Source: an uncultured delta proteobacterium (GTDB taxonomy: Bacteria > Myxococcota > Myxococcia > Myxococcales > Myxococcaceae). Taken from it: a DNA stretch of 64,000 nucleotides. Shown piece after piece: positions 48,070-58,723 of this stretch; within the stretch, counting starts at the first letter, position 1, and every line of letters starts with the position of its first letter. The stretch is taken from positions 288,001 to 352,000 of the forward strand of contig CAVZMH010000022.1 of NCBI GenBank assembly GCA_963776345.1, in the 5' to 3' direction. Both the position numbers and the translations under genes were made by a program. Below the pieces are notes generated by a model, which was given only the letters and a program-made list of their open reading frames with translations, had not been told where the DNA came from and ran no database searches.

Positions 48070-49152
48070 TCAGTAGACGCCGGGAATGACGCGGAACGGG
48101 ACGCGACGGCAGTATTCCGTCCAGAGCGCGCCGTACTTCCGCGCGCACCGGCGATCGTCGTCCGCCTGGCGGGGCAGGAGGAGCGCCACGTAGTAGAGCG
48201 GATAGAGCCAGGGCCACGGGTCGAGCGGCCACCCCAGGGCCAGCGTGAGCCCGATGGCCATCGAGATCTCGCCCAGGTAGTTGATGTGCCGCGAGAGCCC
48301 CCAGAAGCCGTTGCACAGGAGGCGATGCTCCCCGTCGGAGAGGGCCCGCGGCGCGAGCACGCCGAGGAGCTTCGCCTCGGGGTGGGTCTTGAAGAGGAAT
48401 TTTTGCAGATTCGCGCCGCGCGAGAGCGACCAGCCGACGAAGAACACCCCTGCGGCGAGGAGGAGCAGTGCGACCGGCGCGTGCGGGTCGGGCTGGCGCG
48501 CCACCGACCAGAGCCCGATGCAGTAGAAGTACGGATAGAAGGCCATGCAGCCCCAGCCGAGCTTGAAGCCCACGCGCTCGGCGACGAAGTCGTAGGTGTA
48601 GAGGTGCACCTCCTCGAAGAGGAGGTACTCGAGGACGAAGAAGGTGAACAGCGCGGCGTGGAGGATGACGCCCGGTGAGGCCTGCCCCGGGTGCGCCAGC
48701 GCCTGGTGCGCCGCGAACGACAGGACGTTGAGCTCGAGCTGCACCGCTCCGATCAGGTAGAGGAACATCTTGGCGTCGACCCGTGCGCCACGGCGGCCCG
48801 CCCCCCACTGCGGATTCTCGCGGCGGCCGAGATACAGGTCCGCGACGAAGGATCTTCCGGTCGGCGACGCGCCGAGGACGATGGCCAGGGTGAACAGCAG
48901 GCCGAGTGTGCAGGCGCCGGCGAGCCCCTCCCAGCGGTGCTCCCAGAAGAAGTCCCAGCCGATGACGCCCCGGTGCGCAGCGGCGGCGTAGAGCGCGAGC
49001 ACCACCAGCAGGACGGGGAGGCCGTTGAGGCGATAGCGCAGCGGCCTTCCGTCGGCGTCGCGCACGTACCCCGAGACATGGCGCGCCGGGACGATGATGT
49101 GGAGCGTGAACACCGCCGCGTAGACCATCCAGGGCGAGAAGAATCCGAGCAT
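48070..49152 (-). CDS. ERG4/ERG24-family sterol reductase-like membrane protein
   Basis: YRLNG, GRRENPQ, DAKMF, TYDFVAERVGFKLGWG, NLQKFLFK, LLCNGFWGLSRHINYLGE, DDRRCARKYG..W.EYCRRVP.RVIPGVY. Confidence 0.85.
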   Translation of the reverse strand: MLGFFSPWMVYAAVFTLHIIVPARHVSGYVRDADGRPLRYRLNGLPVLLVVLALYAAAAHRGVIGWDFFWEHRWEGLAGACTLGLLFTLAIVLGASPTGRSFVADLYLGRRENPQWGAGRRGARVDAKMFLYLIGAVQLELNVLSFAAHQALAHPGQASPGVILHAALFTFFVLEYLLFEEVHLYTYDFVAERVGFKLGWGCMAFYPYFYCIGLWSVARQPDPHAPVALLLLAAGVFFVGWSLSRGANLQKFLFKTHPEAKLLGVLAPRALSDGEHRLLCNGFWGLSRHINYLGEISMAIGLTLALGWPLDPWPWLYPLYYVALLLPRQADDDRRCARKYGALWTEYCRRVPFRVIPGVY

Positions 49153-51635: not shown

Positions 51636-51743
51636 ATCGTCAGACCCCGCAGCGTGTGCAGGAGAGAACGTCGGCGCGGAAGGTCCGCTTGACGGCTGTG
51701 CGTCGGGGATAGGCTTCGGCCCGAATCTCGAGAGGGGTGGCCA

Positions 51744-52310
51744 ATGAATGCTCTTCGCCTCATCGGTGCGCTGGCAGCCCTTGCTGTCGCTTCCCCGGTC
51801 CATGCCGAGGCCCCGGCCGGGCATCTGCTCGGTCCCGGAGACAAGGCACCAGACTTCACGCTCCTGAGCAACGACTGGAAGGAAGTCAGACTCGGCGATC
51901 TTCGTGGCAAGAAGAACGTGGTGCTCGTCTTCTACGTCCTGGCGTTCACCGATACCTGAACCAGTGAACTCAAAGCCTATCAGGCTGATGGGCCCAAGCT
52001 GGAAGCAAGCGACACGGTGGTGTTTGGAATCAGCAACGACAGTCCAGCGGCAAACGCGGCATACGCTCGCCAGATCGACGTTCACTTTCCCCTGCTGAGC
52101 GATCAGAACGGCAAGGTGCTCAAGCAGTACGGCGTACCGCTCCGTTTCAAGCAGGTGGGGGCCACGAGTTACGAACTGGCGCAACGCGCGACGTTCCTCA
52201 TCGACAAGCAGGGGGTCATTCGACGCGTCGAGCTGGGTGAGGAGGCGGTCGACCCGTCGAAGACCGTGAACGCCTGCAGCCTCCTCGAGCACCGCAAGCC
52301 GGGCCCGTAG
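51744..52310 (+). CDS. Selenocysteine-containing peroxiredoxin (AhpC/TSA; BCP/AhpE-like) with signal peptide
   Basis: ORFs 51744..51959 and 52017..52310 share one frame separated only by TGA 51957-51959; read-through gives GDKAPDFTL...VVLVFYVLAFTDT-U-TSELKAY...VFGISND...FPLLSD...RATFLIDKQGVIR (188 aa). Confidence 0.88.
51960..51993 (+). promoter_or_regulatory. Putative bacterial SECIS element
   Basis: Hairpin GCCUAUCA-GGC-UGAUGGGC (51975-51993) with a G-starting apical loop about 23 nt after the UGA; folded by eye. Confidence 0.6.
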
Positions 52311-52479: not shown

Positions 52480-55212
52480 TCAGGGCTGATGCGGCGCGGA
52501 GGTGACGGTGTTCACCTGGACGTTGTCGATGATCACCCCGCAGGAATGCCCGGGCCGGACGTCCGCGCAGGTGCCGATGAAGTCCTGGGCATACTCGAAG
52601 CGAAGCTGGGCGGTGGTCCCGGCCATGCCTGGCAGCCGGAGCCGGACGTGCTGGAACCCGTTCGACGCCCCCGCCCATGCCGACATGTCCTCGAAGTAGG
52701 CCGGGTCGCCATTGCGGGGAAAGTGCTTCGGATACTGCTGCAAGGCCCCGGTCTCGAACCGATCCTCGAACGCCTCCGCCAGCACCGATCTCAGGGTATT
52801 GCCGGTGGTGAGGTCGGTGACCCGGAGGAACAACCCGTCGTACGCCAGGATGTTGAAGCTCGGGTCGTCCTCGGTATCGTAGCAGATGTCGAAGTCGACC
52901 GTCACGTACTCCGCGTTCCCCGGCACGGCGAACGCGGGGCTGAAGAGCCGTTGCCAGGCCGAGCCGTCGGTGTTGGTGTGGAACGCTCCGTTCGATTGCG
53001 TCCCGCAGAAGCCCGGGCTGCCGGGCGACCCGGGCATGATCTTCCAGTTGATCGACGGGTCACCCGTCTGCGCCACCGCCCTCCACCCAGTCGGAATCGC
53101 ACCCGAGCCGTCGAAGCTCTCGGAGATCAAGACGGTGCTCTGCGGCGTGCCGGTGAAGAGGGTGTGGAGCAGCACGGTGCGCTGGTGGTCGTCGGTGTAC
53201 ACCTCGAGGCGCAGCTCGATCGGTGTCCCCGGGATGAACGACGGCCGGGTGAAGAGGAAGAAGGGAAGGACGTTCTGCTGTGCCTCACCAGGCTTGATGT
53301 CCCGCCAGGCCGAGATCCCGAGGAGCACGTCGACGCCAGGTGTGCTGGTCGAGAGGCGGGCCACCACGTCCCTCAGCTTTTCCTTGCTCAGGGTATTGGT
53401 CACGTAGTTCCGGAGCTCGACCTTGAGGGTGAAAAGCTCGCCGGGGTCGACGAACCCGTTTCCACCGCTGTCCTTGACCGTCTCCCCCTGCCAGTCCAGC
53501 GGAGAGGCGTCGAACTTGTGGTCCGCGCTGGGGAGGATCTGCACCAGCGCATCCGGCACCGTCAGGCTCAGGTCCGGCTGGCCATCGACGAAACCCGCGG
53601 GCGGACGGGAGGCCAGGGCGAACACGGGATAGAACTTCCCCTTCATCGCCACGCACTGGTTGTAGTCCCCCAGGTTCGGCTGGCTGGTGTCATTGCCCCA
53701 GCCCGCGTGGAACGGACGATCGTTGAGCGGCAGCGGCTGGCTCCAGTGGCGGCCACCGTCGTCGGAGAACAGGTAGGACACGTCGGTGAGATCCCCCGAC
53801 GCGGCCGTGCCCTGATCGTAATAGTGCACGAAGACGCGACCCGTGTCGTTGTCCACCGTGACCGCGGGGAACCACTGAGCCCGGTCGGCGCCAGGACGGC
53901 TGTTGAGAGCGACCGGTTTGTCGAAGTGGCGGCCGCCATCGGAGCTTCTCAGCAGCATGATGTCGGCGCCGTCCTGCGAGTCGTTGCTGGCGTAGACGAC
54001 GTAGATGTTGCCCCGGTTGCGTCCCCATGACTTGTCCACGGCCATCGAGGGGAAGCTGTGCACCCGGTCGTTCCCCAAGATGTAGTCGATGATGAAGAAC
54101 GGCGCGGAGATCTCCACCGGGGCGCCCCAGGTCTTCCCTCCGTCATCGGAGCGGGCGAAGGCGATGCTGTTGCTCAGGCCCCCCGGCAGCCTCCGCCAGG
54201 CCACGTAGGCGCGGTCCTTCTCCGGGCCGAACCGTGGAATCGAGCCCGTGCCCTCGCGGATGGTGGCGCTGATGATCGCCGCGCTGGCGAAGGTGGGCGG
54301 GGTGCTGGAGAGCACGTCGTCCGAGTAGGTGCTGAGGATCTGCGTGCCACCGGGCGCGACCGGGGTGAAGTTTGTCCAGGTCATCAGGACGCGGCCGGTG
54401 CGCCGATCGACGTCCATGAACTCCTTGTCCGCTGCATCGACCGGGAAGCCGTCGGGATCCAGGACCCCGCTCGGATTGGAGGCGGCAGTCACCTCGAAGG
54501 GGCCCTCCCAGCTGTGCCCGCAGTCGCGCGAGCGGTGGATACTCATTGTCTGGACGATGGCCGGCCCGAGCGCGAAGTCCTTCACCACCAGGAGGATGGA
54601 GGAATAGACGAAGTTGCAGCCGCCCAGGTACTTCACGTCGGGGTCGCCGAAGACCTGAGGGAACCCGAAGATGTCGGGCGGCCCGCCGGGCAGCTGCCCA
54701 CCATCGGTGAACGTCTTGCCACCGTCGTCCGAGTACATGAAGCCCGACACCGAGGTCTGAGCGAGATCGAAGCCACGGAAGTCGTTGAAGCCGACGACGA
54801 TGTGCTTCCCGGTGTCGTCGATGGCAATGGACGTCTCCGCCTGCCCGCCCCGCGGAAGCTCGCCCTCGTCGAGGCAGGCCGGGTCGGCCGAGCAGTCCGG
54901 CTCCTCGCCCCCCTCGTCCTCATCGCCATCGCTCGGAGGGGGTCGGCTCACGGCGGCGCGCCCGACCGGTGCGCCCACGACCGAGGGCGCCAGGGCCGCC
55001 TTTGCCGCCGGCGCGGCCAGCCGCATCGTCACCCCGCCTTGGGCCCGGATACGCGCACGCACTGTCGCGGCGCGCTTGCCCATGCTGGACATGCCGGTGC
55101 CGGCGTGCCCGGGCCTGGCCAGAGCATCTGGCGGCCGCTCCGCGAGAGCGACTCCCGGGAGTCCCAGCGAAGCCGCCAGCAACCACACCGCGAAGACTCC
55201 GGACCTGGACAT
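52480..55212 (-). CDS. Secreted BNR/Asp-box (sialidase-like) beta-propeller protein
   Basis: Signal peptide ending VALA; five Asp-boxes (SDDGGKTF, SRDCGHSW, SDDGGKTW, SSDGGRHF, SDDGGRHW), LGDY, and C-terminal beta-sandwich domains. Confidence 0.82.
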   Translation of the reverse strand: MSRSGVFAVWLLAASLGLPGVALAERPPDALARPGHAGTGMSSMGKRAATVRARIRAQGGVTMRLAAPAAKAALAPSVVGAPVGRAAVSRPPPSDGDEDEGGEEPDCSADPACLDEGELPRGGQAETSIAIDDTGKHIVVGFNDFRGFDLAQTSVSGFMYSDDGGKTFTDGGQLPGGPPDIFGFPQVFGDPDVKYLGGCNFVYSSILLVVKDFALGPAIVQTMSIHRSRDCGHSWEGPFEVTAASNPSGVLDPDGFPVDAADKEFMDVDRRTGRVLMTWTNFTPVAPGGTQILSTYSDDVLSSTPPTFASAAIISATIREGTGSIPRFGPEKDRAYVAWRRLPGGLSNSIAFARSDDGGKTWGAPVEISAPFFIIDYILGNDRVHSFPSMAVDKSWGRNRGNIYVVYASNDSQDGADIMLLRSSDGGRHFDKPVALNSRPGADRAQWFPAVTVDNDTGRVFVHYYDQGTAASGDLTDVSYLFSDDGGRHWSQPLPLNDRPFHAGWGNDTSQPNLGDYNQCVAMKGKFYPVFALASRPPAGFVDGQPDLSLTVPDALVQILPSADHKFDASPLDWQGETVKDSGGNGFVDPGELFTLKVELRNYVTNTLSKEKLRDVVARLSTSTPGVDVLLGISAWRDIKPGEAQQNVLPFFLFTRPSFIPGTPIELRLEVYTDDHQRTVLLHTLFTGTPQSTVLISESFDGSGAIPTGWRAVAQTGDPSINWKIMPGSPGSPGFCGTQSNGAFHTNTDGSAWQRLFSPAFAVPGNAEYVTVDFDICYDTEDDPSFNILAYDGLFLRVTDLTTGNTLRSVLAEAFEDRFETGALQQYPKHFPRNGDPAYFEDMSAWAGASNGFQHVRLRLPGMAGTTAQLRFEYAQDFIGTCADVRPGHSCGVIIDNVQVNTVTSAPHQP

Positions 55213-55375
55213 GGATTTCCTCCCCACGCTGGAGTGCCAGCGTTGAACCGATTCGATTCACCCACCCTCGACGAAGCGGCCCAGTGCACTACCACTTCGT
55301 CGCGTGCGACGGTGGGACGATTCCGTGGTGAGCGCGAGGGCCCGTCCCGCCGCAGTGCGGCGTCCGCTGGCGGCC

Positions 55376-57289: not shown

Positions 57290-57420
57290 TTCCTCGCCGG
57301 GGCGCCCCCGACAGCGAACGGCAGCGATCCGTGTCCGCTTTCGCCGCTCGTTTCCGTCTTGAGGGGAGGCAAAGCCGCGCCATTGGCCTGGCGGTGCCTT
57401 TCCATCGAGGGAGACGTCAC

Positions 57421-58723
57421 ATGAGCGAATGGTGGATGCAGAGAACGATGGCCGTGGGCCTCGCGGTCATCGCGCTGGCGGCATGGAGCGCCGGGCCGGC
57501 CCGCGCCGGAGATCGAGGCCAGCGGGAGGAGCACGAGGAGAAGGTCCGCAAGAGGAGCGCCGAGAAGACGCTCTACATCTGGGCCGGTGACGCCGAGCGG
57601 GTCCGCCCGGACTTTCTGGCGGTGATCGACTTCAACGAGAACTCGGCGAACTACGGAAAGGTGCTGCGCACGGTCGCGGTTCCGCCTCCCGGCAACGTGG
57701 GCAACGAGCCGCACCACTGCCACCTCTCCACCGACAAGAACATCCTGGCCTGCGGCGGGTTGCTGAGCGTGCTCTCCGGCCAGAACGGCATCTTCTTCTT
57801 CGACGTCTCCGACGCCCGGAAGCCGGAGATTCCTCTTCTCCACCAGGGCTCCGAGCTCCAGCATCACCGACGACTTCCTGCCGCTGCCCGGCGGGGGCTT
57901 CCTGGTGACGCAGATGGGATCGGCGACGGGAGACGCGCCGGGCCGCGTGGCCGAGTTCGACCGCCACCTCCGGCTGGTGGCGGAGCATCCCGCCAACCCG
58001 CCCACCGATGGCTTCAACCCCCACGGCATCTCGGCCCGCTTCGACCTCGACCTGTTCGTCACCAGCGACTTCATCAATCCGGCGTCCACGCTCAACTCAT
58101 GGCCCGGACCGGTCGAGCTTCGCGGCGCCCTGCGCTTCTGGAACCTCTCGCGCCGCGAGATCGCGCGCACGGTCTTCCTGCCCGAGGCGCTCGGCTCGAT
58201 GGACGTGAAGCTGATCCCCAACGATCCTCACGGTCGTGCGGTGACCGCCAACATGTTCAGCGGGCTGGTCTACACAGTGGACCCCACCGACGGCAGCGTG
58301 GTGCAGTCCTTCGACTGCGAGGACATCGTTCCCCACGTCGAGGTCCCCGTCCCCGGTGGGATGGTGCAGCTGCTGGCGATGCCGGAGAGCGGGGATCGCC
58401 TCATCTTCGGCTCCTTCCAGGCCGGTCAGGTGGGTCTGCTCGACATCAGCGACCGCAGGGCCTTCAAGCAGCTCTCGGTCGTGAACCTGGGCGTCGGCGC
58501 CGGCCCCCACGACATCGACCTGACCGACGACGACGCGCGCCTGGTGGTCACCGACTACTTCCTCGACGAGGATGACTTCGGGCGGATCCACTTCGACGGA
58601 GATCGCAAGGTCCGGGTGATCAAGGTCACCCGTGACGCCCTCACCCTCGATACCCGCTTCGACCTGGACTTCAACACCGCCTTCGACCACCCGGCGCGCC
58701 CCCATGGAATCGCCATGAAGTAG
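57421..58723 (+). CDS. Selenium-binding protein SBP56 / methanethiol-oxidase-like secreted protein, frameshifted near 57826
   Basis: Signal peptide; PDFLAVIDF..S.NYGKV, GNEPHH, FNPHG, GPHD, RPHG; removing one G at about 57826 gives KPRFLFSTRAPSSSITDDFLPL joining ORF 57905..58723. Confidence 0.8.

Follow-up and report, generated by a model that had tools for sequence, protein, structure and literature searches.

A predicted exported selenocysteine peroxiredoxin with Val at the active-site proline position in a Myxococcaceae genome

The gene, its neighbours and the selenocysteine machinery

The window (the whole 64,000-nucleotide stretch of DNA analysed here) carries at positions 51744-52310 of the forward strand a putative selenoprotein gene of 188 amino acids with an AhpC/TSA (peroxiredoxin, Prx) fold, as assigned from its translation, a PF00578 match and a structure model. 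Translation yielded 188 codons followed by TAG, with the TGA at 51957-51959 as the sole internal stop, and hereby reproduced the frame with a lone stop at the peroxidatic Cys site from which the original prediction had started. The TGA is located in the motif FYVLAFTDT-U-TSE and is predicted to encode the peroxidatic selenocysteine (Sec) U72, on the basis of TGA in homologs and Cys in a sister clade. A purine-rich stretch (51730-51737, forward strand) lies 6 nt ahead of the ATG and may act as ribosome-binding site, and a scan for promoters and terminators around the gene returned none. In the list of open reading frames (translation table 11) the gene appears as two frames, 51744-51959 with 71 aa and 52017-52310 with 97 aa, the same split that had been described initially. 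The less GC-biased codon usage claimed for the gene was also recovered, its GC3 being 0.75 vs. 0.86-0.95 in ten neighbouring genes and falling into the bottom 1.3% of 3199 heuristically called genes.

A predicted secreted BNR-repeat (sialidase-like) protein of 915 aa is encoded on the reverse strand at 52480-55227, convergent with the selenoprotein gene. Elsewhere in the window, a sterol-reductase-like membrane protein of the ERG4/ERG24 family (48073-49152, reverse strand; E 7e-50) adjoins a short-chain dehydrogenase, and a secreted beta-propeller-like protein (57331-58723, forward strand) seemingly extends across two frames near 57800-57900, possibly due to a frameshift. No Pfam match was found for the second part of the latter protein, which may resemble selenium-binding protein/methanethiol oxidase.

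The original prediction had pointed to selA, selB, selC and selD as the genes to be sought in the genome (5.1 Mb, 98% complete), and all four are present, with selA, selB, selD and tRNA-Sec detected above their family cut-offs. Both selD itself and fdhA contain an in-frame TGA, and a small-loop hairpin folds after the TGA of selD, of fdhA and of a TlpA-like gene. An altered genetic code with TGA specifying Trp or Cys was rejected, since TGA terminates many ordinary genes and the only tRNA with the anticodon TCA in the genome is tRNA-Sec.

Conservation of the TGA codon and the SECIS hairpin

Homologous loci in GTDB genomes were searched using patterns from which the active site was left out, and this returned at least 76 loci (a sample), mostly from Acidobacteriota; two among the matches listed are titled Myxococcaceae and delta proteobacterium. 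The peroxidatic site is TGA in 75/75 scorable loci among the matches listed, while locus L117 gave no alignment across the active site and hence was left unscored. A Cys homolog used as query matched 20 of 301 Acidobacteriota genomes, all with TGA (two were known from the first scan), and further matches in the window's own family have TGA in 6/6 cases. For 50 among the at least 76 loci the host genomes were tested for selA, which was detected in 46 and not found in four (their completeness not given). The host loci carry soil or wetland labels, and hosts of the family are largely aerobic soil dwellers.

In 120 protein-database matches the site is occupied by Cys (98), Trp (18) or Gly (1), with three matches unparsed (two of these are C-terminal halves). 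Protein databases split the family, as seen from the half-proteins P0002 and P0015 left by gene callers, or appear to mistranslate it, the Trp-containing proteins (18/120) all coming from a single source and presumably reflecting a misread TGA. In metagenome DNA of the Cys clade the site was covered in 63 of 71 loci and is TGC or TGT in 63/63; these loci are close kin (39 distinct 45-mers) and were therefore counted as one lineage. Alignment of homologs hereby bore out the proposed Cys/UGA pairing.

TGC or TGT at 51957-51959 had been named as the observation that would speak against recoding. No alternative base occurs there on the public contigs aligned to the gene (4 runs), the TGA is bridged by at least 31 bases per side on two contigs from two of the four runs, and it is conserved in homologs. 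One of these two, a metagenome contig of a close relative (run X5; a single contig), has non-synonymous changes at V65 and T69. Compared with seven close relatives, dN/dS was 0.03-0.09 upstream of the TGA (one pair saturated) and 0.05-0.18 downstream (hairpin codons excluded), and values of at most 0.18 on either side indicate purifying selection on both halves.

A bacterial SECIS hairpin is predicted at 51975-51993 (forward strand) from folding, codon conservation and published consensus criteria. It has an 8 bp stem and a GGC loop (51983-51985), is positioned 23 nt past the TGA and has a folding energy of -10.5 kcal/mol. The consensus, as given in the available text of PMC13188914, comprises a 3-9 nt loop with G[G/U], a 4-16 bp stem, a distance of 16-37 nt from the UGA and an MFE of -7.5 or lower, and the hairpin in the window falls within all four ranges. 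A G-loop hairpin at the distance usual for bacterial SECIS elements, as originally described, therefore stands, and it is conserved in the Sec genes. Its stability was not significant when compared with dinucleotide shuffles in five sequence windows (z -0.04 to -0.73), and it folds better than 97.7% of 5000 synonymous recodings. Codons 79-82 show zero synonymous change in 74 listed Sec genes (74/74; Ala 72/72), a set that excludes L105, L116, and L118 as truncated or ambiguous; all other codons conserved in at least 85% of these genes vary synonymously. By background codon usage the string of codons 79-82 would be expected in about 1.4% of sequences, the kin among them not being independent. 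All five apical pairs are formed in 90 of 94 Sec loci and four pairs in two loci, the remaining two using another hairpin, whereas three is the maximum reached in the 63 Cys loci. In the lower stem, three pairs have changes in both partners (12 cells), a number matched by 0/500 shuffles (a figure inflated by relatedness), and in the window's clade the stem is kept with its register shifted by one base. The case for this predicted SECIS is one of conservation across homologs rather than of hairpin stability, and the element, fixed in four codons over two phyla and missing from the Cys clade by loss, appears to be an unusually clean example.

A pseudogene, a sequencing error or a true stop with two short proteins would be in line with the frame being split by gene callers and with a hairpin that alone is not unusually stable, but would leave unexplained a TGA fixed at one codon over two phyla, SECIS codons without synonymous change, two halves that are both under purifying selection, the Cys counterparts and the Sec machinery. 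We consider this explanation effectively refuted, and the locus almost certainly to harbour a real selenoprotein gene.

Predicted protein and comparison with known systems

The read-through protein matches PF00578 (AhpC/TSA) over residues 31-161 (E 1.2e-32). Arg148 (52185-52187, forward strand), the conserved catalytic Arg of peroxiredoxins, is present in 74/74 listed members and corresponds in alignments to that of AhpE and Bcp4, in agreement with the claim that canonical Prx motifs continue past the TGA. At its cut-off none of the NCBIfam models was reached by the read-through protein, the Sec-peroxiredoxin models scoring 52.4 vs. 270 bits (PrxU) and 36.7 vs. 298 (Prx-SUH). An AlphaFold (AF2) model of the mature chain with Cys in place of Sec has a thioredoxin-like Prx fold (pLDDT 91) in which helix 2 starts with U72, and the nearest structures found by Foldseek were archaeal Bcp4 and mycobacterial AhpE (TM about 0.8). 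The single other Cys near the C-terminus, which had been put forward as a possible resolving residue, is Cys178 (52275-52277, forward strand); it is the only Cys of the protein, is kept in 74/74 listed members and lies in the last helix (alpha5, residues 150-162 of the mature-chain model), where it is predicted to be the resolving Cys.

The Sec-pathway leader proposed originally is predicted to comprise residues 1-21 ending in V-H-A (51744-51806, forward strand) and proved to be a family trait in a simple charge-plus-hydropathy heuristic. A signal-like leader was scored in 70 of the 77 listed members, four more have a lipoprotein-like hydrophobic leader that misses the charge rule and three are truncated, so that all 74 listed members with an intact N-terminus have a hydrophobic leader. 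The leader score was positive in 0/27 Pro-type controls (16 long enough for testing). In 12/77 listed members (L074, L089, L092, L095-L097, L099, L104, L106, L107, L114, and L118) the cleaved leader is replaced by a lipobox-like Cys and a long linker of low complexity. A Sec peroxiredoxin that is not exported, its leader uncleaved or unused and the protein residing in the cytoplasm or at the inner membrane face, would be compatible with an export call made by so simple a heuristic. We regard this as very improbable, since all intact listed members maintain a leader in spite of its variable sequence and since the lipobox-type members represent two export routes in one family.

Val65 (51936-51938, forward strand) replaces the Pro of the PxxxT/SxxC motif, i.e., at position Cp-7 relative to the peroxidatic residue. 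The alignment of the 77 listed members has Val (74), Ile (2) or an unreadable residue (1, truncated) and in no case Pro at Cp-7, extending the originally noted Val to Val/Ile in 76/76 readable members, while Cp-3 carries Thr (76) or Ser (1). Because the Pro at Cp-7 is missing, the protein is classified from its sequence as a Prx variant rather than a canonical member. Protein-database Cys members of the family retain the Val, and of 118 neighbouring 50%-clusters that could be parsed (150 listed, 32 unparsed; identified by a rough regular expression) 25 likewise have no Pro, most of them with Cys. The idea that Sec permits loss of the Pro was not supported as a strict rule, as Cys members keep Val and other Cys Prx clusters lack Pro. 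This Pro has been described as absolutely conserved (PMC4749874), and with it missing efficient peroxidase activity is not guaranteed. The family represents a large natural exception to that description, with matched Sec and Cys versions available for kinetic comparison.

One alternative is a true selenoprotein, exported as well, whose main role would be other than peroxide reduction and which would function in redox relay or repair on envelope proteins or sulfur/selenium species, with an active site more open without the Pro. The Pro is missing in all 76 readable listed members, an exported Prx-like protein without detectable peroxidase activity (PrxL) is described in the available text of PMC3322552, and 15 loci adjoin an hsp20-clpB-like stress cluster and five a DsbA-like gene (named by sequence inspection). 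PrxL, however, does not have the rest of the conserved Prx residues, of which Thr/Ser and Arg are retained here together with the motif spacing, and the Pro-less Prx clusters elsewhere, most with Cys, imply that the change is tolerated; we therefore consider a function mainly other than peroxidase unlikely. The reading favoured here, at a probability of roughly 0.7, is an exported AhpE-like Sec/Cys (atypical 2-Cys) envelope peroxiredoxin reduced through DsbD/TlpA-type proteins, with both export and activity being predictions.

The available texts of PMC1794560 and PMC13188914 describe bacterial Sec-peroxiredoxins (TxxU), including PrxU of Eubacterium acidaminophilum and three listed for Anaeromyxobacter dehalogenans. 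The window protein shares with these the Prx fold, Sec at the peroxidatic site and a SECIS directly downstream, and differs by Val in place of the Pro of the motif PxxxTxxU (PMC13188914); "signal peptide" and "periplasm" have no matches in the main text of that review, as far as available. The AhpE signature PxAF(T/S)xxC (PMC5302317, available part) is matched as AF(T)xxU with the P missing, and AhpE and archaeal Bcp are the nearest solved structures. To AhpE the protein is 35-37% identical at a TM of about 0.8, and it has in common with the subfamily of M. tuberculosis AhpE the xAF(T/S)xxC motif and a Glu at Cp+3. AhpE members with a helix-5 resolving Cys and an intramolecular bond have been described (PMC4749874), as would correspond to C178 in helix 5. 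Unlike AhpE, the window protein has Sec, a signal peptide, no Pro and a G(V/I)SxD motif, which has been described for PrxQ.

PprX of Caulobacter crescentus is a characterised periplasmic Cys peroxiredoxin of the BCP/PrxQ subfamily acting in the ScsB-TlpA-PprX pathway (PMC3322552, available part). Compared by description only, the window protein resembles PprX in the predicted signal peptide and envelope location, a second distant Cys and the DsbD-family donors in the genome, but PprX uses Cys and, according to the same text, retains PXXXTXXC. In place of the BCP/PrxQ motif P(K/A/R)(D/A)xTxGC of PprX-type proteins the window protein has VLAFTDTU. Exported selenoproteins are represented by MccSep (Geobacter) and SaoB/SaoC (Clostridia) in the available parts of PMC13510729 and bioRxiv 2022.07.06.499078; UGA-Sec recoding and a cleaved or lipoprotein signal peptide (predicted here) are shared with them, whereas their folds and functions are unrelated and they are known from anaerobes. 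As far as these sources extend, Sec peroxiredoxins had been published before, as had periplasmic PprX and selenoproteins with export signals. A literature search, with most subscription papers outside its reach, found no publication on an exported Pro-less Sec peroxiredoxin, and BSepDB, judged from what is accessible of its description, may well contain these sequences as generic Prx. If export and activity are as predicted, selenium-dependent antioxidant defence would reach the envelope of bacteria that are abundant in soil.

Putative mechanism, genomic partners and evolutionary history

In the proposed mechanism SelB and Sec-tRNA would very probably bind the hairpin past the UGA and insert Sec72. 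The leader would then direct the chain to the Sec translocon for export, although in about a dozen relatives a lipoprotein leader seems to serve instead. By analogy with the family, H2O2 or an organic hydroperoxide would be attacked by the selenolate of Sec72, with Thr69 and Arg148 holding it in place, and Cys178 would resolve Sec72 as an intramolecular Se-S bond like in AhpE-type enzymes with a helix-5 Cys. The least supported step is re-reduction, which might be carried out by an envelope thioredoxin-like protein fed by a DsbD-family membrane protein (cf. ScsB-TlpA-PprX). Two genes of the DsbD family occur in the genome, of which one encodes a periplasmic domain at the N-terminus, along with several TlpA-like genes with predicted export, one of the latter a candidate Sec lipoprotein. 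The flanks of 78 loci contain no conserved redox-partner neighbour, and no conserved partner or synteny was found among nine close relatives, including those of the same genus.

The Sec lipoprotein candidate (contig C15:34634-34960, reverse strand; locus L230:1429-1905, reverse strand) is a second hidden, predicted exported selenoprotein of 159 aa, TlpA/ResA-like, with a U-G-V-C motif (UxxC) and a hairpin after the TGA. TGA-containing orthologs of this Sec-TlpA are present in 6/6 members of the genus and in the two tested hosts from outside Acidobacteriota, and none was found in Acidobacteriota hosts among the 30 genomes searched. Sec-TlpA also occurs in five genus members without the selenium peroxiredoxin gene. 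It was for these reasons rejected as a dedicated partner of the peroxiredoxin, and its distribution, in the genus and non-Acidobacteriota hosts but not in Acidobacteriota hosts, is that of an available rather than a dedicated candidate reductant.

In the phylogenetic tree a branch (96/84) sets off the Val-type rows from the adjoining leaderless AhpE-like peroxiredoxins. A topology uniting all Sec rows to the exclusion of the Cys clade was rejected (p-AU 0.0007; 46 rows, outgroup root, hairpin columns kept), and this points to a derivation of the Cys clade via a Sec-to-Cys change with loss of the SECIS. The gene was found in one of 12 other genomes of the window's genus and in six of 400 sampled genomes of its phylum, all of one sister genus. 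Its rarity in the phylum together with its low GC3 and the missing synteny suggests a mobile, acquired gene. The free tree nests four Myxococcota-type rows inside Acidobacteriota, but a tree with these rows outside Acidobacteriota was not rejected (p-AU 0.11), and transfer from Acidobacteriota was hence not accepted as an established fact.

A more far-reaching scenario, which we put forward tentatively and consider rather unlikely, is a hitherto undescribed, ancestrally selenium-using envelope Prx lineage without the Pro in soil Acidobacteriota and some Myxococcaceae, its Cys members being Sec-to-Cys reversions with SECIS loss. In the window's genus the enzyme would be recharged by the Sec-TlpA lipoprotein as a two-selenoprotein relay outside the cytoplasm. 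If the ancestral Sec lineage is real, the natural Sec/Cys pair sharing Val would make the separate contributions of Pro and selenium directly testable.

Two further observations concern Sec peroxiredoxins at other loci. At locus L105 the match is directly followed by a second Prx-like frame, in which a variant of the motif once more terminates at TGA, and tandem paralogs may occur at other loci as well. The loci L016, L017, L033, and L041 (genomes G036, G037, G020, and G023) constitute a second Sec-peroxiredoxin group, mostly with Pro (one Lys), that branches apart from the Val family in the tree. A hydrophobic leader is present in most and a C-terminal Cys in all of its members, which suggests that the combination of export and Sec arose more than once.
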